The notes beneath the pieces are model-generated. The model was not told the DNA's origin. It was given only the letters and a program-made list of their open reading frames with translations, and did not search any database. A stretch of DNA of 55,163 bases from an uncultured Rhizobium sp. (lineage in GTDB: Bacteria; Pseudomonadota; Alphaproteobacteria; Rhizobiales; Rhizobiaceae). Positions 3,639-27,778 of this stretch are shown piece after piece (position 1 is the stretch's first letter; the number at the start of each line of letters is the position of its first letter). Position numbers and translations under genes: made by a program. Where the stretch lies: contig CAMFHT010000001.1 of assembly GCA_945952245.1 (NCBI GenBank), positions 1 through 55,163 of the forward strand. The letters run 5' to 3'.

Positions 3639-3658
3639 CAAGAAAATCCTTTTTCCTG
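3639..3658. promoter_or_regulatory. CAAGAA-N8-TTCCTG box between glxA and soxB, candidate operator
   Basis: Resembles the box at 2526-2544, with one mismatch and a spacer 1 nt longer. Confidence 0.3.
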
Positions 3659-3694
3659 TCAGCAAATATGGACGCAACAAGAGGATGAACCGCC

Positions 3695-4945: not shown

Positions 4946-4964
4946 GAGGACGAGGGGAACCAAG

Positions 4965-12326: not shown

Positions 12327-12327
12327 G

Positions 12328-13053
12328 TCAGGCGGTCCTCACGAGCCCTCGGCGGGCGCGTTTTTCGATCAGGCGGATGACGACGTTCGAGACCAGCGTC
12401 AGCGCCAGATAGAGTGCACCGGCGGCGAGGAAAAAGAGCATGTAGGCCTTGGTCGAGCCTGCGGCCTGCCGGGTCACGAGCGTCAACTCGCTGAGGCCGA
12501 TGACGGCGAGCAGTGCCGTATCCTTCGTTGCGATCATCCAGAGATTGGCGAGGCCCGGAATGGCGTGCGGCAGCATGGCCGGAAGCGTCACGCGGCGGAG
12601 CACCATCAGCGGTGACATGCCATAGGCGCGCGCTGCCTCGATCTGGCCGACGGGGACGGCCTTGATGGCCCCACGCAGCACCTCAGTCGAGTAGGCGCCC
12701 TGCACCGCTCCGATCACGAAAATGCCGGCCATCAGAGCATTGATGTCGACGGCGCCATAACCCATGAGCGCGAGCAGCTGGCTGAGTGCATCCGTGCCCG
12801 CATAATAGAGCAGCAGCATCAGCACCAGATCGGGAACGGCGCGGATGAGGGTGGTGTAGATCTCCATGAGATCGCGGATCAGCGGCCCGCCATAGAGCTT
12901 GCCGCAGGCGCCGCCAATGCCGATGGCGAGGCCGAGGAAATAGCCCCCGAAGGCGAGCTTCAGCGACATGTAGAAGCCGCCGAGCATGACGCCGCCCCAG
13001 CCCGGGGCATCATAGGCAAGAAGGTCGAAAACCGATTGGGAGGCTGCGGCCAT
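12328..13053 (-). CDS. Polar amino acid ABC transporter permease (HisQ-like)
   Basis: YTTLIRAVPDL, GQIEAARAYGMS, KDTAL. Start is 13053 or 13065. Confidence 0.92.
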   Translation of the reverse strand: MAAASQSVFDLLAYDAPGWGGVMLGGFYMSLKLAFGGYFLGLAIGIGGACGKLYGGPLIRDLMEIYTTLIRAVPDLVLMLLLYYAGTDALSQLLALMGYGAVDINALMAGIFVIGAVQGAYSTEVLRGAIKAVPVGQIEAARAYGMSPLMVLRRVTLPAMLPHAIPGLANLWMIATKDTALLAVIGLSELTLVTRQAAGSTKAYMLFFLAAGALYLALTLVSNVVIRLIEKRARRGLVRTA

Positions 13054-13078
13054 GGCGCGATCCATTCAACGGGCGGAA

Positions 13079-13113
13079 GGGATGCCGAGCCTGCCTGAGC
13101 GGCGCGGCATCCC
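13079..13113 (-). other. Intra-operon stem-loop after the binding-protein gene
   Basis: GGGATGCCG...CGGCATCCC arms, at the position typical of mRNA-stabilising hairpins in ABC operons. Confidence 0.5.
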
Positions 13114-13122
13114 CTTGAGCCA

Positions 13123-13905
13123 TTACTTGCCGTAGATGTCGAAGTCGAAATACTTCTTCGAGAAGGTGTCGTACGTGCCGTTGGCGCGGATCGCCTTGAT
13201 CGCGGCGTTGATCTTGTCCTTCAGCTCGGTTTCGCCCTTGCGCAGGCCGACGCCGACGCCGAGGCCGAGAATCGAAGGATCGTCCTTGACCACACCCTTG
13301 ACGTCGCAGCAGGCGCCCTGTTCGGACTTCAGGAAGGCGTCGAGGGCGACGGAGTCCGCCTGAACGGCATCGAGACGACCGGCGGCCAGATCGTTGTTTG
13401 CCTCGTCCTGCGTCTGGTATTCCTTGATTTCGGATGCGGTCGGGCCGAAGTACTTCGTTGCATAGGCCTGGTGGATGGTCGAGACCTGAACGCCGATCAC
13501 CTTGCCCTTGAGGCCTTCCGGCGTCGCGTCGAACTTCTGGTCCTTGGGGCCGATCACAACGGTGGGAGTGTTGTAGTACTTGTCGGAGAAGTCGATCGTC
13601 TTCAGGCGCTCCTCGGTGATGGACATGGAGCCGATGATCATGTCGATCTTCTTCGAGGTCAGCGCCGGAATGATGCCGTCCCAGGCGACCGGCGTGATCA
13701 CGCAGTCGAGCTTGGCTTCGGCGCAGATGGCCTTCTGGAAGTCAACTTCCCAGCCCACCCAGTTGCCGCTCGCATCCGGCGAGGTGAAGGGCGGGTAGGG
13801 TTCGGCGGCGAAGCCAACCTTGACCTGATCGGCCTGGGCTGCACCCGTCAGGGCGCCGAGCGTCACGGTCGCTGCTGCAATGGCGATGGCAAATGCTTTT
13901 TTCAT
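13123..13905 (-). CDS. Polar (basic) amino acid ABC transporter substrate-binding protein, SBP family 3
   Basis: Signal peptide, EPYPPF, WDGIIPAL, SMSITEER, DLAAGRLDA. Confidence 0.93.
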   Translation of the reverse strand: MKKAFAIAIAAATVTLGALTGAAQADQVKVGFAAEPYPPFTSPDASGNWVGWEVDFQKAICAEAKLDCVITPVAWDGIIPALTSKKIDMIIGSMSITEERLKTIDFSDKYYNTPTVVIGPKDQKFDATPEGLKGKVIGVQVSTIHQAYATKYFGPTASEIKEYQTQDEANNDLAAGRLDAVQADSVALDAFLKSEQGACCDVKGVVKDDPSILGLGVGVGLRKGETELKDKINAAIKAIRANGTYDTFSKKYFDFDIYGK

Positions 13906-13955
13906 GATGTTCCCTTTTCCTGTCTTATTGTCGTTATCGATCGCTTCTTGCGATT

Positions 13956-14729
13956 TCAGTGGATCGAGCTGATGAACTTTTTCAGCCTTTCCGATTTCGG
14001 CGCGCCGAAAACCTGCTCCGGCGGGCCCTGTTCCTCGATCAGCCCGTTATGCAGGAAGACGACGTGGTTGGAGACTTCCCGGGCGAATTTCATCTCATGG
14101 GTAACGAGGAGCATCGTCCGCTTTTCGCGTGCGAGATCGCCGATGACCGACAGCACCTCGCCGACGAGTTCGGGATCGAGCGCCGAGGTCGGCTCGTCGA
14201 ACAGCATGGCGAGCGGCTGCACCGCGAGCGCGCGGGCAATCGCCGCGCGCTGCTGCTGGCCACCGGAGAGGAAGGATGGGTAGACATCGCGCTTTTCGAA
14301 CAGACCGACCCTTTTCAGGATGGTTTCCGCCGTTGCGATCGCTTGGTCGCGTGGCACGCCGAGCACGTGGATCGGCACTTCGATCACGTTGCCGAGCACC
14401 GTCATGTGCTGCCAAAGATTGAAGCTCTGGAAGACCATGGCAAGGCGCGAGCGAATGCGCTCCACCTGCTTGCGGTTCGCCGGCATCAGGCCTCCCTGGC
14501 CGTCTGTCTTCATGTCGATGGTTTCGCCGTGAACGGCGACGCTGCCGGCAGTCGGCAGCTCCAGGAGATTGATGCAGCGCAGAAAGGTCGATTTCCCCGA
14601 ACCGGAACCGCCGATGATGGCGATCACGTCGCCCTGCTTCGCTGTCAGTGAAATACCCTTCAAGACTTCGAGCGGTCCGAACCGCTTGTGTAGATCCGTG
14701 ACCCGGATCGCCTCCTGTGGGTCCGTCAT
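13956..14729 (-). CDS. Polar amino acid ABC transporter ATP-binding protein (HisP-like)
   Basis: GGSGSGKST, LSGGQQQR, FDEPTSALDPE, VTHEM. Confidence 0.95.
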   Translation of the reverse strand: MTDPQEAIRVTDLHKRFGPLEVLKGISLTAKQGDVIAIIGGSGSGKSTFLRCINLLELPTAGSVAVHGETIDMKTDGQGGLMPANRKQVERIRSRLAMVFQSFNLWQHMTVLGNVIEVPIHVLGVPRDQAIATAETILKRVGLFEKRDVYPSFLSGGQQQRAAIARALAVQPLAMLFDEPTSALDPELVGEVLSVIGDLAREKRTMLLVTHEMKFAREVSNHVVFLHNGLIEEQGPPEQVFGAPKSERLKKFISSIH

Positions 14730-14856
14730 GCAAATCCTTCCCATGCCGGCTTCTGCCGGCTCTTCTTATCGTTCAGTGTTCCCCAGCACTTGTTTATGCC
14801 CCTCGGATGCTGACCCCGGAAGCGTTGGTTGAGGGGAGTTTTGCACTTGTGCAGGA

Positions 14857-14874
14857 ATTATTCAAGCGTATAAT
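14857..14874. promoter_or_regulatory. ATTAT-N8-ATAAT inverted repeat in divergent promoter, candidate TetR operator
   Basis: ATTATTCAAGCGTATAAT; the right arm overlaps a TATAAT -10-like hexamer. Confidence 0.45.
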
Positions 14875-14917
14875 AGCGCGATCATCTCATCGGACAAAAT
14901 CGCAGCGGGAGTTTTCA

Positions 14918-15790
14918 ATGAAGCGTTTCGGATCGCAGGACATGTCCTTGCCTCTCCGCCGGGTCCTCATGCGCCGGCCGGGACCGAGCCTGATCGCTGC
15001 CGATCGCGCCAAATGGCATTACGGCCCGAGCTTCGACGGCGCGAAGGCCGTCAGCCAGTACGGCGCCTTCGCTTCGCTCGTTGAAAAGTCCGGTGCCGAG
15101 ATCCTCTGGATCGAGGACGACGGCGATGGCATGGCGGATGCCATGTTCACCCACGACCCTTCGCTGATGACGGATGAGGGCGCGCTTATCCTCAACATGG
15201 GCAAGGCACTGCGCAAGGGCGAACCCGGCCTTCATGAAGAGGCCTATCGCAAGGCCGGCATCCCGATCCTCGGGCGCGTCGAGGCGCCGGGGACCGTCGA
15301 AGGCGGGGACTGCATCTGGGTGGACGCGAAGACGCTTGCCATTGGACGCGGCGTCCGCTCCAACCAGGCGGGCATCGACCAGGTGGCGGCGATCCTGAAG
15401 CCACTCGGAGTCACGGTGCTCACCTATGATCTCCCGCTTTGGGCCGGCGAAGAGGCCTGCCTCCACCTGATGTCGGTCATGAGCCCGCTCGCGCCCGATC
15501 TGGCGCTCGTGCATGCGCCGCTGATGCCGGCCGCCTTCTACATGATGCTCAGGGACCGTGGCATCAAGCTCATTCACGCGCCCGAAGACGAGTTCGCGGC
15601 AAGCTTCGGCCTCAACCTCAACGTCCTGCCCGTCAGACCCGGCAAGGTCATCGCCGTCGCCGGTTTCCCGGGCACGAAGGCGGTCATGGAGGCAGCGGGC
15701 TGCGAGGTCGAAACCTTTGAGGCGGACCCCCTCTGCATCGCCTGCGAAGGCGGGCCCACCTGCCTCACCCGTCCGGTCTGGCGCGGATGA
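14918..15790 (+). CDS. Amidinotransferase/pentein family hydrolase (arginine deiminase / dimethylarginine dimethylaminohydrolase-like)
   Basis: DAMFTHDP, EGGD, LHLM and GGPTCLTRP carry the Cys-His-Glu/Asp catalytic set. Start MKRFGS after GGGAG. Confidence 0.88.
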   Translation: MKRFGSQDMSLPLRRVLMRRPGPSLIAADRAKWHYGPSFDGAKAVSQYGAFASLVEKSGAEILWIEDDGDGMADAMFTHDPSLMTDEGALILNMGKALRKGEPGLHEEAYRKAGIPILGRVEAPGTVEGGDCIWVDAKTLAIGRGVRSNQAGIDQVAAILKPLGVTVLTYDLPLWAGEEACLHLMSVMSPLAPDLALVHAPLMPAAFYMMLRDRGIKLIHAPEDEFAASFGLNLNVLPVRPGKVIAVAGFPGTKAVMEAAGCEVETFEADPLCIACEGGPTCLTRPVWRG

Positions 15791-16416
15791 ACCGACGGAC
15801 CTTCCACCGCGCCGGAGAGGCGGAGCGCCGCCGCGACCTGATCGCGGCGACCCTCGACGTCATTGCCGAGCAGGGGCTGAGGGCCGCGACCGTGCGGCAG
15901 ATCTCGGCCCGTGCCGGCGTGACCGGTGGATTGATCCGGCATTATTTCAGCAGCAAGGATCAGATGGTCCAGGCAGCCTATCGCGAGCTGATGCAGGGCA
16001 TGATCCGCTCCGTGGAGGCGGCGGCGGAGAACGGGGCGACGACGAAGGAGCGGCTGCGCAACTTCATCACCGGCAACCTGTCGAAGGACGTAACCGATGC
16101 CCGCACCATTTCGCTCTGGGCAGCCTTCATCGGGCATGTGAACCTCGATCCTGTCTTTGCGGAGATTCACCGCGAATACTACCTGGCCTTTCTCGAGAAA
16201 CTCGAGGCGATGCTGGCATCCTATCTCGCAAGCATTGGCCGCAAGACCGACGGTCAGGCGCTGCGCGGCAAGGCGATTGCGATCAACGGCCTGATCGACG
16301 GCCTCTGGCTCGAAAATTCGGTAGCCGGCGATCTCTTCACCGGCCTCGACCCGGACAAGCTTGCACTGCGTTCGGTGGAAGACCTTCTGGGTCTCGATGC
16401 GAACAGCCTGGATTGA
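15787..16416 (+). CDS. TetR family transcriptional regulator (BetI-like)
   Basis: RRRDLIAATLDVIAEQGLRAATVRQISARAGVTGGLIRHYF HTH; IDGLWL C-terminal motif; ATGA overlap. Confidence 0.93.
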   Translation: MNRRTFHRAGEAERRRDLIAATLDVIAEQGLRAATVRQISARAGVTGGLIRHYFSSKDQMVQAAYRELMQGMIRSVEAAAENGATTKERLRNFITGNLSKDVTDARTISLWAAFIGHVNLDPVFAEIHREYYLAFLEKLEAMLASYLASIGRKTDGQALRGKAIAINGLIDGLWLENSVAGDLFTGLDPDKLALRSVEDLLGLDANSLD

Positions 16417-16482
16417 CCGATGCCTTTCCCGCTGCCAAACGCTGCGGGCCAAGCCACTGCTTTGTTATAAAAGGATAAAATC

Positions 16483-17670
16483 ATGCGTTACGCCTCCATC
16501 ACCGAAAGACTGTCCACGCTCGGTTCCGGCAAGTGGGCCGTGCATGCGGAGGCGCGCAACATGGCGTCCAAGGGCGAGAAGATCATCGAGCTCACCATTG
16601 GCGAGCCTGATCTTCCGCCCGATCAGGCGCTGCTCGCCGAATGCGCCCGCGCCATGCATGCCGGCCGGACCCGCTATTCCAACGGACGCGGCGAGCCGGC
16701 CGTGCTGAAGGCGCTGACGGAGAAATACCGCAAGCGCCGCGCCGACGTGACGGAAAGGAACATCCTCTGTTTCCCGGGCACCCAGACGGCCCTCTTCGCC
16801 GTCATGATGGGCATCGCCGAGCATGGCGACGTCGTCCTTGTCGGCGATCCGCTCTATGCGACCTATGAAGGTGTCGTTGCCTCGACCGGTGCCACGCTCA
16901 AGCCCGTGCCGCTCGATCCGGAAAACCGCTTCCACATGCGGGCGGAGGATCTCGAAAAGGCGATCACGCCGGAGTGCCGGGTCCTCCTTCTCAACACGCC
17001 GCACAATCCGACCGGCGCCGTGCTGACGGCGGAGGAGATCGCCGCGATCGGCGAGGTTTGCCGCCGTCATGACCTCTGGATCGTCTGCGACGAGGTCTAT
17101 GAAGAACTGATCTTCGGTACCGGTTTCGCGTCGCCCTTCGACAATCCCGATCTGGCGGACCGTACGATCGTGGTCTCCTCGATCTCCAAGTCCCATGCCG
17201 CGCCGGGCTTCCGCAGCGGCTGGGCGGCGGGGCCGGAGGAGTTCTGCGCCCGCGTGCTGCCGGTCTCCGAGACCATGCTCTTCGGCGTCCAGCCCTTCAT
17301 CTCCGACATGACGGCGATGGCCGTCTCGCAGCGTTTCGACACGGCAGAGATCATGCGGAAGAACTATCTCCGACGCGCGAAAATCGTCGAAAAGGCGCTG
17401 TCTGGCGAGCCGCTCCTGAAGGTCATGATGCCGGAAGGCGGCATGTTCATCCTCGTCGACGTCGGCGCGACCGGGCTCGACGGCGAGGCCTTCGCCTGGG
17501 AGCTTCTAAGGACGCAGAAGGTGGCGGTCATGCCCGGCTCGTCCTTCGGCGAGGAGGCGCGCAATTTCATCCGTATCTCGCTCACCGTTCCCGACGACAT
17601 GCTTGAGATCGCCATGACCCGCGTGGCGGAACAGGCGAGACTGCTGGCACGGGAGGCGAAGCGCGCATGA
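16483..17670 (+). CDS. PLP-dependent class I/II aminotransferase, arginine:pyruvate transaminase AruH-like
   Basis: LTIGEPD, NTPHNPTG, DEVY, SISKSHAAPGFRSGW. Translationally coupled to the AruI-like gene. Confidence 0.85.
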   Translation: MRYASITERLSTLGSGKWAVHAEARNMASKGEKIIELTIGEPDLPPDQALLAECARAMHAGRTRYSNGRGEPAVLKALTEKYRKRRADVTERNILCFPGTQTALFAVMMGIAEHGDVVLVGDPLYATYEGVVASTGATLKPVPLDPENRFHMRAEDLEKAITPECRVLLLNTPHNPTGAVLTAEEIAAIGEVCRRHDLWIVCDEVYEELIFGTGFASPFDNPDLADRTIVVSSISKSHAAPGFRSGWAAGPEEFCARVLPVSETMLFGVQPFISDMTAMAVSQRFDTAEIMRKNYLRRAKIVEKALSGEPLLKVMMPEGGMFILVDVGATGLDGEAFAWELLRTQKVAVMPGSSFGEEARNFIRISLTVPDDMLEIAMTRVAEQARLLAREAKRA

Positions 17671-19280
17671 CCATGGAGACGAAGACTGTCGGCGAAGTGC
17701 TGATCGATATCCTGGAGGCGAACGGCGTAGACACCGTCTTCGGCATTCCGGGCGTTCACACGGTGGAGCTGTATCGCGGGCTTGCCGGTTCGAAGATAAG
17801 GCACGTCACGCCACGGCATGAGCAGGGTGCGGCCTTCATGGCGGATGGCTATGCACGCGTCTCAGGCAAGCCTGGCGTATGCCTGCTGATCACCGGCCCG
17901 GGCCTCACCAATGCGATTACCGCCATGGCGCAGGCCGGGCAGGATTCGGTGCCGATGCTGGTCATCTCCGGCGTCAACCGGCGCGATTCGCTCGGACACG
18001 GACGCGGCAAGCTGCACGAGCTTCCAGACCAGCGGGCGATGATGGCGAGCTTCTGCCTGATGACCCATACCCTGCTCGAACCCTCCGATCTCGCCGACGT
18101 CATGGCGCGGGCCTTCACCCTTCTCCGCTCCGGTCGTCCCGGCCCCGTTCATATCGAGATCCCGACGGACGTGATGTCGGCGCCGATCCCGGTTCCTGTC
18201 CTGAGGCCCGCGCCGGCGCTCCGGCCCCGGGGCGACATCGCCTCGCTTAAGGAAGCGGCTCGGCTTTGCGAGGCAGCGAAGTCTCCGGTTATCCTCGCCG
18301 GCGGCGGTGCGGCCCGCGATCATCTGGCGATCCACAAGCTTGCCGAACAGCTCGATGCACCCGTCATCACCACGGCCAATGCCCGCGGCCTCATGCCGGA
18401 CCATCCGCTTGCCGTTCCCGCCAGCGCCAGCCTCCAATCCGTCCGCAAGGCTATTGCCGAGGCCGACCTTGTCATCGCGCTCGGCACCCAGTTCGGCCCG
18501 ACGGATTACGATGTCTATGTCGACGGCAAATTCCCCGAGCTCAGCAACGTCATCCACGTAGACGTGGACGCGGCTCAGCTTGGACGCAATCCGCAGACGC
18601 ATCTGCCCATCCTCTCAACGGTCGAGAACATGCTGGGCGATCTGCTCGTGCTGCTCGACGGTTATCAGGCAACCGCACATGGCGCTTCGCGCGCCGAGGC
18701 GCTGAGGGATGCCGCGAGGGCCGAGCTTTCGGCCAAGATGCAGAACGAGGTCTCGATCCTCGAGACGATCAGGGACACGCTGCCCGGCGTCATCATCGTC
18801 GGGGATTCGACGCAGGCCGTCTATGCCGGCAACCTCTATTTTGATGCCGGTCGGCCCTTCGGCTGGTTCAATGCGGCCACCGGCTTTGGCGCCCTCGGTT
18901 ACGGTCCGCCTGCCGCCATCGGCGCTGCGCTCGCGGAGCCGGAAACGCCGGTCGTGTGCCTCACCGGCGATGGCGGGCTGCAGTTCACCCTGGCGGAGAT
19001 CGGTTCGGCACGGGACGTGAAGGCCAAGGTCATCTACCTCGTCTGGAACAATGATGGTTACCAGGAGATCGAGACCTATATGATCGAGAACGGGATTACC
19101 CCTGAAGGGGTGAAACCCTCGGCGCCCGATTTCGTCAGGATCGGCGAGGCCTACGGCCTGCCGTCCGCGCGGCTCGATGACATCTCGGAGCTGCCCGACG
19201 CGCTCAAGGTGGCGGCACGCCATGACGGGCCGACGCTCATCGAACTGCACGAGGGAAAGACGCGGGGTGTCCGCGTCTGA
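17667..19280 (+). CDS. ThDP-dependent decarboxylase, 5-guanidino-2-oxopentanoate decarboxylase AruI-like
   Basis: FGIPGVHTVELYRGL, RHEQGAAFMADGYAR, GKLHELPDQ and the ThDP motif GDGG...WNN. Confidence 0.85.
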   Translation: MTMETKTVGEVLIDILEANGVDTVFGIPGVHTVELYRGLAGSKIRHVTPRHEQGAAFMADGYARVSGKPGVCLLITGPGLTNAITAMAQAGQDSVPMLVISGVNRRDSLGHGRGKLHELPDQRAMMASFCLMTHTLLEPSDLADVMARAFTLLRSGRPGPVHIEIPTDVMSAPIPVPVLRPAPALRPRGDIASLKEAARLCEAAKSPVILAGGGAARDHLAIHKLAEQLDAPVITTANARGLMPDHPLAVPASASLQSVRKAIAEADLVIALGTQFGPTDYDVYVDGKFPELSNVIHVDVDAAQLGRNPQTHLPILSTVENMLGDLLVLLDGYQATAHGASRAEALRDAARAELSAKMQNEVSILETIRDTLPGVIIVGDSTQAVYAGNLYFDAGRPFGWFNAATGFGALGYGPPAAIGAALAEPETPVVCLTGDGGLQFTLAEIGSARDVKAKVIYLVWNNDGYQEIETYMIENGITPEGVKPSAPDFVRIGEAYGLPSARLDDISELPDALKVAARHDGPTLIELHEGKTRGVRV

Positions 19281-19535
19281 TCAGGCTCGGCGTGCCGCCT
19301 CGATCCGGCTCACCCAGTTCTCACCCACATGCCAGCGGCGCATGACGTCCAGCGGATCCTCGTGATCGAGGCGGGCGCAGATGCGGTAGATCTCCAGCGT
19401 CTCCGCATCCATCTCGCCCTTCTGGAAGAAATGCATGGCCGCGGCGTAGCGGGCGCGCCCTGCCCATTCCGTTCCGGGCGGCGCGAGAAGCACCTGCCAG
19501 TGCGGCCGATCCTCTTCCGTCAGCGTGTCGCTCAT
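19281..19535 (-). CDS. Small hypothetical protein (84 aa)
   Basis: GGAGG RBS; starts 13 nt after the GcvT-like stop; its stop abuts the aruI-like stop; protein-like composition. Confidence 0.75.
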   Translation of the reverse strand: MSDTLTEEDRPHWQVLLAPPGTEWAGRARYAAAMHFFQKGEMDAETLEIYRICARLDHEDPLDVMRRWHVGENWVSRIEAARRA

Positions 19536-19548
19536 GCCGCCTCCGTTC

Positions 19549-20769
19549 TCAAAAATCCGCAGGTGGCGTTGTCGTGCGCCGGTCGAGCTTCAGGAAGGGC
19601 CGCGGCACGATCTTCACCCGCTTCATCAGCTTGTGATAGCGCCCTTCGCACAGCGCGTAGATTTCAGCCCAGAGATCCTCGGTCACGGTCGTCCCGAAGG
19701 GACGATCCAGCGAGGCGAGCGCGATGTTGCGCTTCGCCGTCGGCGACCAGATGCCGGCTGTGACGATGCCCGCTTCCCGCTTCTGCCGGTGGTAGATGAT
19801 CGCACCCTCCGCCGGCACGTTGCCCTCGATCTCGAGACCGACGAGGACATGTTTCGCCGTGCCTTTCGCCTGCGCGGACAGGATTGCCCGCTTGCCGTTG
19901 AAATTCGGCTTGTCCGGGTCCACCAGCCAGTCGAGCCCGATCTCGTCCGGCAGACGGGCACGATCGGGGCGGAGCACATGGCTCGCCGTCATGAAGTCCG
20001 CATTGGGCACGATGAAGGCGGCCTCGATGCGGCATTGGTTCAGTGCCTGATAGCCGACGGCGCGAATGCCGTGCAGAGCACCAGCCTCGAAGAGTTGGTC
20101 CCAGAGCGGCAGCGCGAGGCCGTTCTCCACCCAGAGCTCGTAGCCGAGATCACCGGTAAACCCGGTGCGCGAGACGGTCACCGTGCCTTCGCCGAGCGAA
20201 TAGCGGGCAATCTGGAACGGCTTCAGCTGCTCCACGCCGATAAAGCCCATGTTCTTGAGGATGCGGCAGCTGGTCGGCCCCTGAAGCGCAAGGCCGGCGA
20301 CATGATGCGTTTCTTCCTCGATTGCGACTTCGAATCCAAAAGCCGCGTCCGTCAACCAGTCATACTGCTTGTCCTGGCAGCACAGGCGAAAATCGTCTGC
20401 GCCCAGCCGGAACAGGGTGCCGTCGTCGATGACATGGCCGAAGTCGTTGCACCAGCAGGTGTAATGTACGCGGTCCACGGCCAGTTTCCGCACGTCGCGC
20501 ACGGTCAGATAGTTGAGGAACCGCTCGGCATCCGCGCCGGTGATACGGTACTTGTTCATCGGCGTGACGTCGAACACGCCTGCTGCATTCCGGAGCGCCG
20601 TATACTCGGCCTCCACGTCACCGAGCGAATGGGCAGCCTTGTAACCGGCCCAGACATACCAGTCCGGATAGCGGCTGAGGGCATCGAAGCGAGGCTCGAA
20701 GGGCGTCTCGGCAATGGGTTGGTCGATGTGTGTCTGCAGGGCCTTGAGGACCGAGGCGTTCATGGTCAT
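19549..20769 (-). CDS. GcvT-like folate-binding aminomethyltransferase family protein
   Basis: EYTALRNAAGVFDVTPM, GHVIDDGT, LQGP, SRTGFTGDLGYELW, RIEA. ATGA overlap with the upstream gene. Confidence 0.9.
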   Translation of the reverse strand: MTMNASVLKALQTHIDQPIAETPFEPRFDALSRYPDWYVWAGYKAAHSLGDVEAEYTALRNAAGVFDVTPMNKYRITGADAERFLNYLTVRDVRKLAVDRVHYTCWCNDFGHVIDDGTLFRLGADDFRLCCQDKQYDWLTDAAFGFEVAIEEETHHVAGLALQGPTSCRILKNMGFIGVEQLKPFQIARYSLGEGTVTVSRTGFTGDLGYELWVENGLALPLWDQLFEAGALHGIRAVGYQALNQCRIEAAFIVPNADFMTASHVLRPDRARLPDEIGLDWLVDPDKPNFNGKRAILSAQAKGTAKHVLVGLEIEGNVPAEGAIIYHRQKREAGIVTAGIWSPTAKRNIALASLDRPFGTTVTEDLWAEIYALCEGRYHKLMKRVKIVPRPFLKLDRRTTTPPADF

Positions 20770-22328
20770 CGGCGGTCTCCGGAGAGAATGTGGCGGGCGG
20801 CGAGCAGACCCGGCAGTCCCGAAAGGCCGCCACCCGGATGGGCACCGGCGCTGGCGAGATAGAGCCCGCCGATGGGTGTCGAATAGCCCGAGGCGAGATC
20901 CGTTGGCCGGTTCACCAGCAACTGGTCCACCTGCAGCTCGCCGTGATGCCAATGGCCACCGGGCATGTTGTAACGAGCCTCGATATCCCGAGGCGTCTGC
21001 AGGTCCTTGCCAACGACAAGAGCGCCAATGCCCGGGGCATGGCGCTCCAGCACCGCCATGACAGCCTGTTCGAAGAGTGGTTTCCCGGTCTCCCAGCCCA
21101 TTTTCAGACGGTAGGGCGCATACTGGATGAGTGCCGACAAAACGGCGCCCCCCGCGGGTGCAAGGGAGGGATCGGCAAGGCTCGGCAGCGTGATCTCCAT
21201 CACCGGATCGGGTGAGAACTCGCCATATTTCGCGGGGTTGAACGCCTCGTCCACATGCCGGGCGGAACGGGCGATCACGATGCGGCCACGGTGATCCCGC
21301 TCGGACACGCCCGTGAAGCGTGGGAGGGCGGAGAGCGCGAGGTCAAGCTTGGCGACATTGCCCTCGGAGCGGACATTGCGGATCTGCTTCTTGAAGACGG
21401 TGTCGATGTCGGCGGGGTCGGCAAGGTCGAGAAAGACCGATTTCGGATGGATCGCCGCGACGACGAGATCACCGGCAATGGTTTCGCCATTTAGCAGTTC
21501 GATCCCCGCAATCTTGCCATTTGCCGTCAGCAGTCGGCGAACGGACGCATTCGTCCGGATGGTTACACCGGCCCTCTTCGCAGAGTCGGCAAAGGCTGCG
21601 CCGAGCGCCCCCATGCCCCCCTTTGGGATGAACTGCCCGCCGGCGAGGCCGCCGGCTTCCCCTGTCAGTCGGTAGTAGAGACCGAGCAGGGACGTGGGTG
21701 AACGCGGTCCGAGATGCACACCGAGCGTGGCGTCGAAGGCCAGCAGCGCCTTCAGACGTTCGTCGGCGAGATATTCCTCGGCGACATCGGCGACGTTCAT
21801 CAGCACCATGCGCAAGAAATCGCGCGCTTCTTCCTTGCCGCGGGAAATCAGGCTCATTCCGGCAAGGCCGAAATCCTTGATGTCCGTGCCTGACATCTTG
21901 CCGATCTCGGGTGGCCGGCGCTTCAGGAAACGCTTGAGGATTGACGCCTGGAACAGAAGCTTCGCCTTCAGGCTCTGGAAGGCCCGGGCTTCCGCCTCCG
22001 TCACGCCCTCGATGCCTGCCGAACCATAGGCCCCGCGCAGCACCGCCGGCTCCCGACCCTCCGAAAGCACGACCGTCGGCAGAAGCTCTCCGCTGGCCAC
22101 CTCTGCCGGGAGGCGCAAAAGCCTGGCAACATCCGGATCCAGCCGGTTGACGATATGGGCAAGGCCGCTGCTGCGGTAACCGGGCGCAAATTCCGCGGTG
22201 CGGGCTCCACCGCCCACAAAGTCGCTGGCTTCCAGCGCCAGCACCTTCCGGCCCGCCTCCGCGAGCAGGGTTGCGGCGGTCAGGCCGTTATGGCCCGCGC
22301 CGATCACGATCGCATCACAGGACGTCAT
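20766..22328 (-). CDS. Phytoene desaturase family FAD-dependent oxidoreductase (copy B)
   Basis: IGAGHNGL...VGGG, PKGGMG, TPRDIE...GGHWHHGE, GAHPGGG. Confidence 0.9.
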   Translation of the reverse strand: MTSCDAIVIGAGHNGLTAATLLAEAGRKVLALEASDFVGGGARTAEFAPGYRSSGLAHIVNRLDPDVARLLRLPAEVASGELLPTVVLSEGREPAVLRGAYGSAGIEGVTEAEARAFQSLKAKLLFQASILKRFLKRRPPEIGKMSGTDIKDFGLAGMSLISRGKEEARDFLRMVLMNVADVAEEYLADERLKALLAFDATLGVHLGPRSPTSLLGLYYRLTGEAGGLAGGQFIPKGGMGALGAAFADSAKRAGVTIRTNASVRRLLTANGKIAGIELLNGETIAGDLVVAAIHPKSVFLDLADPADIDTVFKKQIRNVRSEGNVAKLDLALSALPRFTGVSERDHRGRIVIARSARHVDEAFNPAKYGEFSPDPVMEITLPSLADPSLAPAGGAVLSALIQYAPYRLKMGWETGKPLFEQAVMAVLERHAPGIGALVVGKDLQTPRDIEARYNMPGGHWHHGELQVDQLLVNRPTDLASGYSTPIGGLYLASAGAHPGGGLSGLPGLLAARHILSGDRR

Positions 22329-23940
22329 GGGCCGCACTCATTTCTTTCGGGGAAAGCTTCAGGTCGCGCAGGATCTCCGCCGCCGCATTGCGCCCCGGCG
22401 CTCCCATGACGCCGCCACCCGGATGGGTGGAGGAGCCGCAGATGTAGAGGCCCTCGATCGGGCTCCGGTACTGCGCATAGCCCGGCACGGGGCGGTTGAA
22501 GAGGATCTGGTCGAAGGTCAGCTCGCCCTGGAAGATATTGCCTTCGGTCAGGCCCACCTCCGCTTCCAGTTCGCGCGGGGTGCGCACTTCCATGTGGATG
22601 ATGCGGTCGCGGAAGCCGGGCGAATAGGCCGCGATCTGGGAAATCACCGATTCTGCGAAGGCGTCCCGGTCCTGGTCCGTCCAGTCGCGCCCTTCCACCT
22701 TTGGCGGGCAATATTGTGTGAAGCAGCTCATGAAATGCTTGCCCGGCGGCGCCATGGTGGGGTCGATCCGGGTCGGGATCATTAGGTCGATCATCGGATC
22801 GGCCGACCAGCGCTCCGCCTTCCAGTCGTCATAGGCGCGCTCCATCCGCTCGATCGAATCGGTGAAGTGGAGGTCGCCCTTCGTGCAGGGAGAGTTCGCG
22901 GGAAGCGCGGGGAAATCGGGCAGGCTGTCGAGCGCGATGTTCACCTTGCCGGAGGAGCCGCGCATCTTGAAGTTCCGGACCCGGTTGAGGAACCTGTCCG
23001 GCAGGTCGGACGGCGCGACGAGCTTGAGGAAGGTGCGCTTCACGTCCGCATTGGAAACGACCATCTTGCCGCGGATCTCTTCGCCATTCGCCAGCACCAC
23101 ACCACAGGCCCGGCCCTGGCGCGTCAGGACCTGCTGGACGTCCGCGCCTGTGCGGATCGTGCCGCCGGAGGCCTGGAAGGAGGCGGCTAGCGCCTTCGAG
23201 ATCGCACCCATGCCGCCACGCGCGAAACCCCATGCGCCGACCGAGCCATCGACCTCGCCCATGTAGTGATGCAGCAGTACATAGGCCGTACCCGGCGATT
23301 TGGGCCCGAGCGCCGTGCCGATGATGCCGGAGATGGCGAGGAAGGCCTTGAGCACGTCCGTCTCGAAGTATTCATCGAGGAAATCCGAGATCGACATGGT
23401 CCAGAAGCGGATGGTCTGGGCGAGGTCGTGGGCGCTCATCTCTCCGAACTTTCGGGCGAGGAACAGAAGTTCCTGGATGTCGCGCGGCTTGAAGCTGAAG
23501 GGATCGGGCGCCGTGCGCATCAGCAGCGGCTGGATGAACCGGCACTGGCGCGTCACGTCGCGCGCATAGCGGTCATAGGCCTCGGCATCCTTCTTCGAGA
23601 AGCGGGCGATCTCGCGCTGATGGGGATAATGCTCGCGGTAATTGGCAAGATAGTCGCCGTCGCGCGTCAGCACCGCCCCGCCTTCATAGGGCAGCACCTG
23701 CAGGCCGTGTTTCGGCAGTTCCAGATCGCGCATGATCTCGGGCCGGAACAGGCTGCAGACATAGGAGCAGTTTGAATAGAGGAAGCCGGGCGTGAGGCTT
23801 CGGCTGACGGCAGCGCCGCCTACCCAGTCGTTCTTCTCCACGACGAGAACGTCGAGCCCTGCCTTCTGCAGGTAGCAGGCGGTGACGAGCCCGTTATGGC
23901 CGCCTCCCACGATGATGGCATCATAGGTTTTCAAACGCAT
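22315..23940 (-). CDS. Phytoene desaturase family FAD-dependent oxidoreductase (copy A)
   Basis: VGGGHNGL...VGGAA, ARGGMG, TPRELE...GNIFQGE, STHPGGGVMGAPG. GAGGAG RBS. Confidence 0.92.
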   Translation of the reverse strand: MRLKTYDAIIVGGGHNGLVTACYLQKAGLDVLVVEKNDWVGGAAVSRSLTPGFLYSNCSYVCSLFRPEIMRDLELPKHGLQVLPYEGGAVLTRDGDYLANYREHYPHQREIARFSKKDAEAYDRYARDVTRQCRFIQPLLMRTAPDPFSFKPRDIQELLFLARKFGEMSAHDLAQTIRFWTMSISDFLDEYFETDVLKAFLAISGIIGTALGPKSPGTAYVLLHHYMGEVDGSVGAWGFARGGMGAISKALAASFQASGGTIRTGADVQQVLTRQGRACGVVLANGEEIRGKMVVSNADVKRTFLKLVAPSDLPDRFLNRVRNFKMRGSSGKVNIALDSLPDFPALPANSPCTKGDLHFTDSIERMERAYDDWKAERWSADPMIDLMIPTRIDPTMAPPGKHFMSCFTQYCPPKVEGRDWTDQDRDAFAESVISQIAAYSPGFRDRIIHMEVRTPRELEAEVGLTEGNIFQGELTFDQILFNRPVPGYAQYRSPIEGLYICGSSTHPGGGVMGAPGRNAAAEILRDLKLSPKEMSAAHDVL

Positions 23941-23998
23941 CTCCTCCTCGCAAGGCTGGCGGAGGATTGCATACGGAACGCAGGCTGTCCAGAGATAA

Positions 23999-24012
23999 TG
24001 AATGAACGTTCA
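23999..24012. promoter_or_regulatory. Operator-like box 1 TGAATGAACGTTCA
   Basis: TGAA-N6-TTCA palindrome 58 nt upstream of the flavoprotein operon; repeated at 24966 and 27759. Confidence 0.7.
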
Positions 24013-24269
24013 GAAAGAATTTTCAAGTTGTTGTTTTGTTTTTGTTATTTACAAAATTCTCCTAAAAAATCTTGGGGTATCCATCATCAGATCTCTGTAG
24101 AGGCCGCTCAGCCTGGGTCAGTCCTCTCAATCAGCCCTCTCGCCAAGGCCGAAAGGCCAACTTGAATACGCGCTTTGCCCGCTTTATGTGGAACACGGCC
24201 CATCATGCCCATCTCCGCCTGCCATCCCGGCGAGGCCAGACGTCGCCCCTAGGAGAGAAGACCGCAATC

Positions 24270-24929
24270 ATGACCACCGCTTCCACGAGAGAACCGGAAA
24301 AGCGCGGCCGCAAGGCAACCAAGGAAACCCGCCAGCAGCAGTTGATCGAAGCGACCATCGATAGCCTCGCCAAGCGCGGCTACGCCGACACCACGCTCGC
24401 GGACGTGGCGGATGGTGCGGGCCTTTCGCGGGGCATCGTCAACTTTCACTTCGAGAGCAAGGAAAAGCTCCTGATCGCCACGCTTCAGTACATGGCGAAC
24501 GAGTATCACCAGAACTGGCTGGCTCTTCTCGAAAAGGCGGGCGACCGGGCTGCAGACCGGCTCTGGGCGCTCTGCGGAGCTGATTTCGACCGGAAAATCT
24601 GCACCAAGCGCAAGATCGCAGCCTGGTGCGCCTTCTGGGGCGAAGCGAAATCCCGACCCACCTACCAGGCGCTGTGCGGCGCTTCCGATCTGCAATATGT
24701 CGCGACCTTCGGGGAGATCTGCGCCGAGATCGAGAAGGAGGGCGGCTATGGCAGCAATGCCGATTCCATCGCCCGAGGACTCTGCGCCATGATCGAAGGT
24801 CTCTGGCTGCGGCTGATGATGGGAGATGGCCTGACCCGCGAGAAAGCGCTCTCGACCGTCCAGGATTTCGTCGCCACCGTCTACCCGAAGCACTTCGACA
24901 CGAGCGGTCCGCGCGATACGAAGTTTTGA
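24270..24929 (+). CDS. TetR family transcriptional regulator (BetI-like)
   Basis: RQQQLIEATIDSLAKRGYADTTLADVADGAGLSRGIVNFHF HTH; AWCAFW and IEGLWL motifs. Confidence 0.93.
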   Translation: MTTASTREPEKRGRKATKETRQQQLIEATIDSLAKRGYADTTLADVADGAGLSRGIVNFHFESKEKLLIATLQYMANEYHQNWLALLEKAGDRAADRLWALCGADFDRKICTKRKIAAWCAFWGEAKSRPTYQALCGASDLQYVATFGEICAEIEKEGGYGSNADSIARGLCAMIEGLWLRLMMGDGLTREKALSTVQDFVATVYPKHFDTSGPRDTKF

Positions 24930-24965
24930 AAACTGCCTTGCCAGATAAGAACCGCTCTGCCAAAC

Positions 24966-24979
24966 TGAATGAACGTTTA
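24966..24979. promoter_or_regulatory. Operator-like box 2 TGAATGAACGTTTA
   Basis: 13/14 identical to box 1; upstream of the class III aminotransferase. Confidence 0.65.
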
Positions 24980-25045
24980 GAATAAATGGCCGGGAAGAAT
25001 ATTGCTTTTCCTCGCTGTTTCGTTCTGAGTTCAGGAGGTATGTCT

Positions 25046-26455
25046 ATGGCCGTGCAGAAGAAACCGGTTGTCGTCGAAGAACTTCGCAATGACAGGGAAG
25101 GCGCCCCCGCGCCTCTGATCCAGCCTTGGCCGTCCTCGGGTTCCATGGGTGCAGAAACCCGCGGTCTCCTCACCGGCTCCGATGGCATCTACGTCCGCGA
25201 TGCCGAAGGGCGGGAGCTGATCGATGGTCCCGCCGGCATGTGGTGCGTGAACGTCGGGCACCGCAACGAGGCCCTGATCTCCGCCATGAGCGAACAGGCC
25301 CGCGACCTCACCTACAATTCGCCCTGGTATACGACGACCAGCCCTGCCGACCGGCTGGCCGAGGAGCTGGCGGCGCGTGCACCCGGCGATCTCGATCACG
25401 TCTTCTTCACGACGGGCGGCTCTTCCGCCGTGGAGACCGCTCTTCGGCTGATGCAGTTCGCCAACAATGTCCGCGGGCGGCCGGAAAAGAAGCTCATCGT
25501 CTCGCGCCAGGCCGGCTATCACGGCTCGACCTATCTCTCCGCCTCGCTGAACGGAAGGCCGCGCGACCATGACTGGATGGATTCAGCGAGCCATCTGGTG
25601 CGCAAGCTGACGGCGCCCGATCCATTCCGCCGACCGGAAGGCATGGATCTCGAAGCCTTCGAGGATTTCCTGGTCGAAGAGTTCGCTGCGCTCATCCGGA
25701 AGGAAGGCGCAGACCGAATCGGTGCCTTCGTCGCCGAGCCCGTTCAGGCCTCCGGCGGCGTGATCGTTCCGCCAAAGGGATATCTGCCCCGGATGGCGGA
25801 ACTCTGCCGTCGAAACGATATCCTCTACATATCGGACGAAGTGGTGACGGCCTTCGGGCGCCTGGGCTCCGTCTTCGCGTCTAGCGACGTCTTCGGGATA
25901 CAGCCGGACATGATCACCTTCGCCAAGGGCGTGACGTCAGGCTATTTCCCGCTCGGCGGCGTCATGGTCTCTGCCGCTCTACTGGAATCGATCCGTTCGA
26001 GCGAACACACGGACGCCATGTTCTCCCACGGGCTTACCTATTCCAGCCACCCGATCGGCTGCGCCGTGGCGCTCAAGAACCTGGAGCTGCTGGAAGATGG
26101 CATTCTCGATCACGTCAGGGAAATCTCGCCCTATTTCCTCGAAAGCCTGAAGCGGCTGGAAAAACACGATCTCGTCGGCGAAGTCCGCGGCATGGGGCTG
26201 ATGGCCTGTATCGAATGCGTGGCAGATCGCGAGGGCAAGAACCCGCTGGCACTCGATCTGGAAGTGGGCAAGCGGATCGACCGCCATGCGCAGGAGCTCG
26301 GGCTTCTGGTGCGTCCGCTGATCAACATGTGCGTCATGTCGCCGCCGCTCACGATCGACCGCAGCCAGATCGACCGGATGGCCGATATCCTCGATCAATC
26401 CATCCGCAGCACCATGGACGATCTGACCCGCGAGGGCTTGTGGAAGGGGCGCTGA
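25046..26455 (+). CDS. Class III PLP aminotransferase (omega-amino acid/diamine type)
   Basis: GMWCVNVGH, TTGGSSAVE, YHGST, EPVQASGG, DEVVTAFGRLG, TFAKG. AGGAGG RBS 7 nt before ATG 25046. Confidence 0.93.
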   Translation: MAVQKKPVVVEELRNDREGAPAPLIQPWPSSGSMGAETRGLLTGSDGIYVRDAEGRELIDGPAGMWCVNVGHRNEALISAMSEQARDLTYNSPWYTTTSPADRLAEELAARAPGDLDHVFFTTGGSSAVETALRLMQFANNVRGRPEKKLIVSRQAGYHGSTYLSASLNGRPRDHDWMDSASHLVRKLTAPDPFRRPEGMDLEAFEDFLVEEFAALIRKEGADRIGAFVAEPVQASGGVIVPPKGYLPRMAELCRRNDILYISDEVVTAFGRLGSVFASSDVFGIQPDMITFAKGVTSGYFPLGGVMVSAALLESIRSSEHTDAMFSHGLTYSSHPIGCAVALKNLELLEDGILDHVREISPYFLESLKRLEKHDLVGEVRGMGLMACIECVADREGKNPLALDLEVGKRIDRHAQELGLLVRPLINMCVMSPPLTIDRSQIDRMADILDQSIRSTMDDLTREGLWKGR

Positions 26456-26482
26456 CCGCCCCGGCCCGTTCCCAAATGAGAA

Positions 26483-26509
26483 AGCCCGCGGTCATTGAAG
26501 CCGCGGGCT
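26483..26509. terminator. Hairpin between convergent aminotransferase and Rieske genes
   Basis: AGCCCGCGG-N9-CCGCGGGCT, preceded by an A-rich stretch. Confidence 0.6.
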
Positions 26510-26530
26510 CATGATTTTCCGGTTTGTCGT

Positions 26531-27739
26531 TCAGACCGTTTGCCGCTCGGCCAGCATCCGGGCATTCAAGGCGGCGAGGTCCGTACCCTCGGATAAATCC
26601 TCGACATCGAGAACCGGAAGCCTTGCCCTCAGATGATCATGATGCGCGCGCACGCCGTATTCGAGGTCTGACAGGTAGAAGCCCTGGAAGTTCTTCGACA
26701 GCATGGCCTCGTTCGACCAGATCGTCAGCTGCACGTCCTCATTGCCGGTGTCGCGGTCGATCCGGAAGGCAAGGTAGCGGGCGAGCTTCTGGGCCCGGCT
26801 TTCCTCACGATACCGGTAAGTGCCACCGCGAAGCAGAGTCCGGTTCACGTCGAGCGGAAACTCCTGATAGAACAGCACCGTCTGCGGTGTCACGGCGATG
26901 ACCGTATTCGGGAAGAGCCCGTAATAGGACCAGCTGCGGTGGAGGTCTTCCGGCAGATGCTCCGGCGTCGGCGAGATCTTCATGTAATGTCGCACGCTCC
27001 AGCGCCGCCCGGCGTGGGGATTGTAGGTCGCATGCGAGCTGTTCGCGCCGTCCACCATGGGCAGATCGTAATAGGTAGAGCCGTAGAGGTCCTGCAGCGC
27101 CGGGTGGGCCATGGCGACGTGATAGCCTTCATTGTCGACATCGCGGACCGACTTCCAGTTCACCGGGCTTTCCTGGGTCCACATGCCGGATGTCGGTACC
27201 CGGTCCTCAAACTGATAAGGCGCCAGCTCCGCTTCGTAGCGCTGCATCAGGGTGGCCACGGATGGCTGCGGGCCCTGCCTGAAGCGAAGGAAAACGAAGC
27301 CGTTCCAGATTTCGTATTCCAATGGCTGCAGGCCGAACTGGACCTTGTCGAGCGGCGGGAAGCTTTCCGGCCGCGCCGCTCCCCGCAGCGTGCCGTCGAG
27401 ATTGTAAACCCATCCATGGAAGGGGCAGACCAGGGCATTGCGGCACTTGCCGCTTTCCTCGGCCACCAGCCGAGATCCCCTGTGGCGGCAGATATTGTGA
27501 AAGGCGCGGACATCTCCGTTCTGGTCGCGCAGGATGAGCGCCCGCTCACCCATCATGTCGAAGCTGAAATAGCTTCCCGCTTCCGGCACGTCGCTGACAT
27601 GGCAGGCGAGCTGCCAGTGATTGAGAAAGACATGCTCCTTCTCGAGTTCGAGAAGGTCCTTGCTGTGATAGCTCCACCCCGGAAGGCCGCGCCGGTCCCA
27701 TTCCGTTGGGATCCCCGTCCTGTTCACGATGGCATCCAT
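26531..27739 (-). CDS. Rieske non-heme iron oxygenase alpha subunit (choline monooxygenase / betaine-oxygenase-like)
   Basis: Rieske motif CRH...CPFHGW; mononuclear Fe motif NWK...EGYHVAMAHP; GGGAGG RBS. Confidence 0.9.
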   Translation of the reverse strand: MDAIVNRTGIPTEWDRRGLPGWSYHSKDLLELEKEHVFLNHWQLACHVSDVPEAGSYFSFDMMGERALILRDQNGDVRAFHNICRHRGSRLVAEESGKCRNALVCPFHGWVYNLDGTLRGAARPESFPPLDKVQFGLQPLEYEIWNGFVFLRFRQGPQPSVATLMQRYEAELAPYQFEDRVPTSGMWTQESPVNWKSVRDVDNEGYHVAMAHPALQDLYGSTYYDLPMVDGANSSHATYNPHAGRRWSVRHYMKISPTPEHLPEDLHRSWSYYGLFPNTVIAVTPQTVLFYQEFPLDVNRTLLRGGTYRYREESRAQKLARYLAFRIDRDTGNEDVQLTIWSNEAMLSKNFQGFYLSDLEYGVRAHHDHLRARLPVLDVEDLSEGTDLAALNARMLAERQTV

Positions 27740-27752
27740 TTCAGCCTCCCAA

Positions 27753-27778
27753 TTTAATTGAACGATCATTCAATTAAA
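27753..27778. promoter_or_regulatory. Operator-like box 3 TTTAAT-TGAACGATCATTCA-ATTAAA
   Basis: 26-bp near-perfect palindrome directly upstream of the Rieske RBS. Core reverse complement is TGAATGATCGTTCA, 13/14 identical to box 1. Confidence 0.75.

Follow-up and report, generated by a model that had tools for sequence, protein, structure and literature searches.

The DNA analysed here is a stretch of 55,163 nt from an uncultured Rhizobium sp. (GCA_945952245.1, contig CAMFHT010000001.1, positions 1-55,163; hereafter the window), in which a locus at 19281-27778 carries seven genes together with copies of a palindromic operator-like box (Table 1). Four of the genes lie on the minus strand and encode two flavoproteins, named FlavA and FlavB, a GcvT-family folate-binding protein (the GcvT-like protein) and an 84-aa protein; the first three are referred to as the trio. 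The flavA and flavB genes overlap by 14 nt (22315-22328), flavB overlaps the GcvT-like gene by 4 nt (20766-20769), and a gap of 13 nt (19536-19548) precedes the open reading frame (ORF) of the 84-aa protein. An earlier note on this DNA, made from the sequence alone, had described four tightly coupled minus-strand genes accompanied by a divergent BetI-like TetR, an aminotransferase and a Rieske alpha subunit; both overlaps and the gap proved exact on ORF checking, and the other three assignments were confirmed by their Pfam and NCBIfam families. The Pfam families represented at the locus are PF01593, PF01571/PF08669, TetR_C_6, PF00202 and PF00355/PF00848.

Table 1. Genes and other features of the locus, in window coordinates.
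Feature	Position	Strand	Description
84-aa all-helical protein	19281-19535	-	Homologue of the N-terminal domain of dimethylsulfoniopropionate (DMSP)-lyase-like PF16867 cupins, free-standing
GcvT-family folate-binding protein, 406 aa	19549-20769	-	Closest to the C-terminal domain of trimethylamine N-oxide (TMAO) demethylase; predicted one-carbon catcher
FlavB, 520 aa	20766-22328	-	Diverged paralogue binding flavin adenine dinucleotide (FAD), without PYROXD2-type residues; predicted partner subunit or second-step enzyme
FlavA, 541 aa	22315-23940	-	PYROXD2-like flavoprotein, amine-oxidase/CrtI fold; predicted catalytic subunit
Operator box 1 (palindrome TGAAY-N4-RTTCA)	23996-24015		Between flavA and tetR
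BetI-like TetR repressor	24270-24929	+	Predicted binder of the boxes
Operator box 2	24963-24982		5' of the aminotransferase gene
Class III omega-aminotransferase, PRK07036 family	25046-26455	+	Pyridoxal phosphate (PLP)-lysine motif at K294
Hairpin, 10 pairs, terminator-like	26483-26509		Between the convergent aminotransferase and Rieske genes
Rieske oxygenase alpha subunit, 402 aa	26531-27739	-	CntA/Stc2-related, bridging Glu204, Asp202 at the CntA Tyr203 site
Operator box 3	27756-27775		5' of the Rieske gene

An independent contig with 327 differences covers the entire stretch in one piece, and the gene arrangement is therefore not an assembly artefact. The assembly of this genome (4.07 Mb) is 77% complete, so the absence of a gene from it proves little. 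No sigma-70 promoter match was found at the locus. The Rieske gene has a second ATG at 27769, inside operator box 3, and hairpins like that of Table 1 were no commoner in the scan than in shuffles.

The seven genes form one conserved regulon sharing the operator box. Scored with a matrix derived from 53 sites (32 loci, all in other genomes), the boxes at 23996, 24963 and 27756 rank 4th, 6th and 2nd in the genome, only 6 sites in the 4.07 Mb reach the score of the weakest of the three, and shuffled intergenic regions (2000 each) attained the observed scores 0, 1 and 0 times, respectively; this test is partly circular because the search pattern for the training sites came first from the window. 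Among relatives, the box lies 5' of flavA in 41 of 79 loci, of the aminotransferase gene in 15 of 18 and of flavB in 0 of 35, compared with 74 of 4912 background windows, in genomes that are kin to one another, so that the counts describe rather than test. The Rieske gene is preceded by the box in 14 of 20 cases, two of which belonged to the training set, and five of the six Rieske genes without it directly follow a same-strand gene. The repressor scores 122.6 bits against the BetI model TIGR03384 (cut-off 201.3) and 122.7 bits against PRK00767 (cut-off 118). The presence of the same box before all three catabolic units, previously seen in the window, thus extends to relatives, and a single regulon under one TetR is supported. 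A fourth strong box at 9397-9416 (3rd in the genome) lies 28 bases before a small gene with PAS and chemoreceptor-signalling domains (8772-9368, minus strand), and may tie sensing to the regulon or be a chance occurrence in an AT-rich stretch.

A scan of GTDB genomes identified at least 597 relatives in 603 stretches, and the best 80 of these loci were read. Their hosts include rhizobia, roseobacters, Pelagibacterales-like bacteria and Woeseiaceae, among others. The order FlavA-FlavB-GcvT is kept in all 69 loci with at least 2.9 kb of downstream sequence, the other 11 of the 80 being too short, and an overlap between flavA and flavB was seen in 61 of the 68 pairs for which it was measured; GcvT orthologues are missing from nine loci whose paralogues reach only 28-41% (L085-L092, L105). 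In a sample of 150 genomes of the family, where a FlavA orthologue was defined by at least 62% identity and 8 genomes with 36-42% paralogues were set aside, FlavA was found in 32, along with the Rieske protein in 31, the aminotransferase in 31, the small protein in 32 and a methyltransferase described below in 28. Over all 150 genomes the orthologues number 35 (Rieske), 34 (aminotransferase), 37 (small protein) and 32 (methyltransferase), counts that leave out three weaker aminotransferase matches and one partial methyltransferase match, and all fall within the same 37 genomes. FlavA and the Rieske gene lie within 35 kb on one contig in 27 of the 31 genomes having both. An even sample of the phylum yielded FlavA in 14 of 393 good genomes, 6 of them outside the family. 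The gene-neighbourhood check suggested earlier therefore confirms a conserved linkage. No description of this cluster was found in the literature searched, which covered few subscription papers and no supplements, nor did a published substrate assignment turn up, in keeping with the earlier note, which knew of none; the accessible portions of 10.64898/2026.06.26.734754 and PMC3160333 do not mention the cluster.

FlavA was modelled at a mean predicted local distance difference test (pLDDT) value of 91.6, and its fold matches are headed by three desaturase-type or uncharacterised oxidoreductases, followed by nicotine, monoamine and putrescine oxidases. The best solved matches of the flavoproteins in both sequence and fold are carotenoid desaturases, which would fit a carotenoid or isoprenoid desaturase-ketolase pair, as such genes are annotated. 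However, FlavA and FlavB score 302 and 205 bits against a CrtO cut-off of 1000, and 132 and 112 bits against a cut-off of 238 for the crtI family, and no crt genes occur among the recurrent neighbours scanned, making this the least credible explanation by a wide measure and agreeing with the non-carotenoid role proposed from the sequence. Nor did the scans of the larger ORFs in the window name any carotenoid gene (one scan listed only E <= 1e-40), as had been noted, and the housekeeping genes ispG and that for farnesyl pyrophosphate (FPP) synthase lie at least 20 kb from the locus. Thousands of such genes are annotated as phytoene dehydrogenases, an annotation that cut-offs and context do not support.

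FlavA shares 34-39% identity with eukaryotic PYROXD2 over the whole domain; identity to a Caenorhabditis briggsae protein named PYROXD2 by UniRef is 38% for FlavA and 29% for FlavB. The residue comparison took in 91 A-type, 82 B-type and 14 eukaryote-type sequences, some of the latter labelled by tree position rather than by name and none of them vertebrate. FlavA has the residues common to the 14 eukaryote-type domains, namely S59, Y60, YVLLHH at 220-225, W237, N334 and H358, whereas in FlavB the PYROXD2-type residues are replaced, the FAD motifs are retained and a GGHWHHGE motif of its own is present. Sequences were labelled A on the strength of the HH motif, which occurs in all first-position genes and in no second-position gene, and in a FastTree phylogeny of 80 sequences A and B fall into separate clades. 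FlavA has 188 near-invariant columns and a mean identity of 66%, compared to 59 columns and 44% for FlavB, and FlavA is therefore likely the catalytic subunit. In the available text of PMC9730628 and PMC13352909, human PYROXD2 variants are associated with N6-methyl- and dimethyl-lysines, and that of PMC8777681 also reports an association with trimethylamine and calls the function unclear.

A complex prediction for FlavA with the GcvT-like protein returned a score of 0.00 and a mark of 0.32, which speaks neither for nor against binding. Mirror-tree correlations (Spearman 0.47-0.82) are confounded by kinship and were discarded, and four apparent FlavA-FlavB fusions that were read were not used, three having out-of-frame stretches and one being a single-contig case without junction ends. 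Among side observations on the flavoprotein family, algal/protist-type PYROXD2-like proteins (P0021, P0028-P0030, P0032, P0034-P0036) carry an N-terminal PF04828 domain, which we take to be the glutathione-dependent formaldehyde-activating (GFA) family; if so, the fusion gives an independent hint that the flavoprotein family releases formaldehyde. This genome also encodes a divergent pair of distant flavoprotein paralogues (L105; contig C154, 3266-7751; 28-31% identity), without a GcvT partner and adjoining an aldehyde dehydrogenase gene.

The best match of the GcvT-like protein in the Protein Data Bank (PDB) is the C-terminal domain of TMAO demethylase (Tdm), and its NCBIfam scores are 238 bits for Tdm (cut-off 1100), 211 for GcvT (cut-off 300), 123 for DmdA and 66 for LigM. 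The alignment to Tdm is limited to Tdm residues 409-776, and the N-terminal Zn catalytic domain is absent from the GcvT-like protein. In T-protein, an arginine serves in lipoyl binding; the equivalent site is Leu243 in 54 of 55 GcvT-like sequences, and is Leu in Tdm too. Asp or Glu at position 116, and E211, are kept in 55 of 55, with roles that we presume to be those of their T-protein counterparts. As described in the accessible part of PMC13619132, the C-terminal domain of Tdm converts formaldehyde to methylene-tetrahydrofolate, and the pocket residues R480, F582 and F672 given there correspond to R91, F185 and W281, where F185 was placed by motif (HMMER shifts it) and a fourth pocket residue falls outside the alignment. 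R91 and F185 do not vary among the 55 sequences. These Tdm-type residues, and a Tdm score twice that of DmdA, suggest that the GcvT-like protein likely catches carbon at the formaldehyde level.

Taken together, the locus is best read as encoding a putative folate-coupled N-demethylation of an aliphatic amine bearing a primary amino group, to which we give an even chance of being correct. Oxidation of an N-methyl group of the amine by FlavA would yield an iminium ion, with the carbon then captured on tetrahydrofolate by the GcvT-like protein, while FlavB may be a partner subunit acting as electron relay or scaffold, or may act on a second methyl group. The aminotransferase, above the PRK07036 cut-off (683.8 vs 618 bits), would convert the primary amine to an aldehyde. 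The earlier suggestions of a split analogue of dimethylglycine dehydrogenase, with FlavA and FlavB beside a separate folate domain, and of an amine-type substrate with a primary amino group, are supported by these comparisons.

A competing possibility is that the flavoproteins cut the other C-N bond in the manner of amine oxidases, releasing methylamine, dimethylamine or trimethylamine and an aldehyde, with the GcvT-like protein only mopping up formaldehyde that comes from a different step or transferring a methyl group directly. The amine-oxidase fold of FlavA is consistent with this, as are the sarcosine-oxidase-type genes at 3695-8768 of the window, genes of the window that are presumably N-methylglutamate-synthase-like, and, in one related locus (L010), a cluster after the small ORF that we take to be dimethylamine-monooxygenase-like. 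The GcvT gene, however, is kept and lost with FlavA and FlavB rather than with the Rieske gene, is translationally coupled to flavB here, and encodes a product whose Tdm-type score is far above those of DmdA/LigM type. Even with the link between PYROXD2 variants and trimethylamine levels (PMC8777681, in the text available) added in its favour, cleavage of the other C-N bond is unlikely, while being the strongest of the alternatives weighed.

The closest solved relatives of the Rieske alpha subunit are CntA and Stc2, and the bridging Glu and iron ligands (E204, H207, H212, D335, C84/H86, C105/H108) are retained; its score against the GbcA model is 135 bits, with a cut-off of 670. According to the part of PMC7948474 available, group V Rieske oxygenases are split by the residue at CntA Tyr203, an aromatic residue marking a C-N-cleaving clade and Asn a demethylating clade. 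This site is Asp202 here and Asp in all orthologues read, matching neither the group Va (Tyr/Phe; CntA, choline monooxygenase (CMO)) nor the group Vb (Asn; GbcA, Stc2) signature, although Asp is isosteric with Asn. No reductase gene was found in the cluster, and a reductase query gave 1 weak match in 126 loci. The Rieske oxygenase would oxidise a C-N bond and draw on a reductase encoded outside the cluster; the genome has a GbcB-like reductase (C202).

The distribution of these genes suggests that the Rieske oxygenase and aminotransferase likely constitute a branch separable from the trio. Three genomes (G011, on one contig and 99% complete; G068, 90%; G104, 92%) have the Rieske, aminotransferase, repressor, methyltransferase and small-protein genes with no FlavA or GcvT orthologue, and the usual place of the trio is taken in G011 and G068 by the small ORF, some 70 bases away from the methyltransferase gene; conversely, G037 (95%, 240 contigs) has the trio without the Rieske gene. 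The Rieske branch may therefore be able to run without the trio, retaining the 84-aa protein and, in most relatives, the methyltransferase. These observations bear on a strictly serial betaine pathway, in which the Rieske enzyme takes the first methyl of a quaternary amine, the trio removes the next two and the aminotransferase finishes, an order that the earlier note had favoured. The occurrence of the Rieske gene with the same box in 31 of 32 trio genomes, its nearest relatives, the kept bridging Glu, the resemblance of Asp to the clade Vb Asn, and other group V-type Rieske genes in other trio loci would accord with such a pathway. Nonetheless, the invariant Asp202, the lack of an adjoining reductase gene and the four genomes that hold one branch without the other render it improbable, and neither a Rieske enzyme that acts first on a betaine nor the strict order can be upheld.

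An apparently complementary pattern, in which at least one of the trio and the methyltransferase is always present, was set aside, as too few genomes are involved. Two trio-less clusters (L107, 9002-10186; L109, 7598-8821) have an extra gene of about 400 aa between the importer and Rieske genes, presumably encoding a serine-hydrolase-like protein. Another genome (G103; L113, 10679-14359) has a copy of the entire cluster that is in decay, with flavA gone from its site and several genes broken.

The 84-aa protein is conserved in sequence and was modelled as five helices (pLDDT 90.4), with no Pfam match among 26 homologues, Atlas matches of at most 0.80, no fold match (best Z 4.5) and no Foldseek match at E <= 0.001. 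A profile search with the family gave at least 224 matches; of 150 listed, 129 are short and 18 have at least 200 aa. When the longer matches were scanned, 8 of 21 exceeded the Pfam cut-off of the DMSP-lyase-like cupin PF16867, and in G015 a fused form (84-aa domain plus PF16867 cupin) lies inside this cluster. By sequence comparison, the 84-aa protein is thus a free N-terminal domain of DMSP-lyase-like cupins. In the sample of 150 genomes, none of the 35 with the Rieske gene and none of the 32 with FlavA lacks it. It has persisted through three losses of the trio, and no copy was seen at 48 of the 80 trio loci; it is therefore not an obligatory part of the flavoprotein set. Its former placement in a flavoprotein complex finds no support, and it may instead work with the Rieske branch.

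The top-scoring box of the genome, on contig C217, lies 13 bases before the gene (4376-4771) for a 120-aa ChrR-type cupin, directly behind what we take to be a formate dehydrogenase operon; the cupin gene was found in 2 of 150 relatives, neither carrying the box. A split cupin formed by this protein and the 84-aa protein was considered and rejected, the C217 cupin having no match to the PF16867 half.

The fusion to a DMSP-lyase-like cupin, in one genome inside the cluster, raises the question of a sulfonium or other onium substrate related to DMSP, such as dimethylsulfoniopropylamine, in which the methyltransferase would methylate sulfur and the cupin eliminate. That the GcvT family includes DmdA and that many carriers are marine would be in keeping with this, but the DmdA score is low and the cupin half is absent from 36 of the 37 matches in the family, which on reading were short ORFs or carried no fusion. 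In the part of 10.1101/161257 available, most DMSP-lyase-like cupins are argued not to be DMSP lyases, their native function being held unknown, and DddQ is linked to proline-betaine catabolism. We consider a sulfonium substrate highly improbable.

Most rhizobial clusters add a PotABCD-type importer and an S-adenosylmethionine (SAM) methyltransferase, and often a monoamine-oxidase-like gene, while marine clusters often add a semialdehyde-aminomutase-like aminotransferase instead, a PotF-like binding protein, PuuA/PuuC-like proteins and acyl-CoA genes. The regulon outlined by the earlier note stands for its seven genes, whereas the importer and methyltransferase of the relatives' regulon were invisible to a reading of the window alone. 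The closest solved relatives of the methyltransferase are phosphoethanolamine N-methyltransferases, and its gene lies between flavA and tetR in most rhizobial clusters (e.g., L082, 12248-13045; L026, 6953-7747); it is absent from this site in the window, with no remnant between flavA and tetR, and present in a congener. With a BetI-like repressor beside it, this methyltransferase could build a betaine-like osmolyte that the oxidative genes adjust or reverse. However, it is absent from the window site and from 4 of 32 trio genomes, and the importer, aminotransferase and aldehyde/acyl-CoA genes point to breakdown; the making or recycling of an osmolyte is accordingly quite improbable, if marginally less so than a sulfonium substrate. 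In the binding protein of the importer, whose carriers include Mesorhizobium and Pararhizobium, the PotD aromatic box and distal acid are kept, with Gly and Cys at PotD E36 and D257 (pocket residues from the accessible text of PMC8666671, which gives D257 as PotF equivalent D278), and the loss of these acids would fit a ligand with a methylated amine end.

If folate-coupled N-demethylation is accepted, N-methylated diamines or polyamines would be the leading candidate substrates, though short of probable, followed closely by N6-methyl-lysines or their derivatives, with methylated omega-amino acids or betaines a more distant third. The full proposal, that the locus encodes a new split folate-coupled demethylase of the PYROXD2 family with an Asp-type Rieske subfamily acting on free N6-methyl-lysines or N-methylated polyamines, is rather doubtful as a whole. 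Several findings weigh against N-demethylation by the trio or its link to lysine. It is odd for a demethylating pathway to include an N-methyltransferase-like gene, as 28 of 32 clusters do; lysine does not normally enter through a PotD-type importer; and a dedicated binding protein is lacking in this genome and in a complete congener (best 39-40%). The co-occurrence counts overstate the association because the genomes are kin and not independent, and no FlavA-GcvT fusion was found, 0 of 47 longer homologues carrying a GcvT Pfam domain in a weak search. In the FastTree phylogeny, the eukaryotic PYROXD2 clade is nearer to stand-alone bacterial proteins than to GcvT-linked FlavA (support 0.63), and since GcvT-linked FlavA is not the sister of eukaryotic PYROXD2, the link to lysine holds at subfamily level only. 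Finally, PYROXD2 is itself without a shown activity in the available text of PMC8777681.

Beyond the locus, the region at 11514-19280 encodes an amino-acid ABC importer, an amidinotransferase-fold protein with a weak dimethylargininase match, a second BetI-like TetR, a class I aminotransferase and a 5-guanidino-2-oxopentanoate decarboxylase (above cut-off), the stop of the decarboxylase gene abutting that of the small ORF. In L019, L082/L083 and L123 the trio has this cluster beside it, and some genes of the cluster are found close to a stand-alone FlavA paralogue in L085; the cluster possibly represents arginine or methyl-arginine catabolism beside methyl-amine catabolism. A methylamine/C1 island at 880-8768, 11 kb from the locus, contains the presumably N-methylglutamate-synthase-like genes, a GbdR-like regulator and a complete soxBDAG-type operon (3695-8768). 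In other genomes (L039, L044, L045, L111, L121), genes for an acyl-CoA dehydrogenase, an ADP-forming CoA ligase and, in some, a crotonobetainyl-CoA-hydratase-like protein lie beside the cluster, a set that we take to resemble butyrobetaine/carnitine processing.

The regulon bears on three orphan families, the PYROXD2-like flavoproteins, the Asp-type Rieske subfamily and the N-terminal domain of DMSP-lyase-like cupins. If the full proposal is true, the human disease gene PYROXD2, of which a child with mitochondrial disease has been reported to carry biallelic variants, would receive its first biochemical function, and there would be a clue to what the DMSP-lyase-like cupins natively do. The carriers are root-nodule, soil and marine bacteria, and the system may mark an unaccounted sink for methylated nitrogen. 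With its repressor, box and binding protein, the system offers handles for finding the substrate through a simple ligand screen.

Several components have counterparts in known systems. The 84-aa protein is homologous to the N-terminal domain of some Cupin-DLL (DddQ/DddL-like, PF16867) members, but cannot be the lyase because it has no cupin domain, given no Pfam match and an all-helical model. The Rieske protein has its ligands and bridging Glu in common with the group V oxygenases CntA, Stc2, GbcA and choline monooxygenase, and differs at the Asp site and in the missing partner reductase. FlavA shares the YVLLHH-centred residues with eukaryotic PYROXD2, which stands alone as a gene, no FlavB or GcvT partner being known for it. 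The single operon of the heterotetrameric sarcosine oxidase SoxBDAG likewise encodes a catalytic flavoprotein, a second chain of Rossmann type and a folate domain, and includes a small gene; however, FlavA scores 27.5 bits against a SoxB cut-off of 529, the small protein is unrelated, and a true sox-type operon is located elsewhere in the window. Tdm (PDB 9Q59) has the closest folate domain, with common pocket residues and Leu at the lipoyl-arginine site, and a Zn domain that is missing here. Dimethylglycine dehydrogenase/oxidase and sarcosine dehydrogenase couple the flavin-dependent oxidation of an N-methyl amine to a GcvT folate domain. The folate domain of these enzymes (PDB 4P9S, 5L46, 1PJ5) is homologous to the GcvT-like protein, in which the pocket residues are present, but they are single fused chains with a DAO-fold flavin domain, compared with three genes and two flavoproteins of amine-oxidase/CrtI fold here. 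The flavin and GcvT genes are separate in the window and in 69 of 69 loci, and the best Pfam family of the flavoproteins is Amino_oxidase rather than DAO, with desaturases and amine oxidases as fold matches; with neither the fusion nor the DAO fold found, the system is dimethylglycine-dehydrogenase-like, yet not a member of that group.

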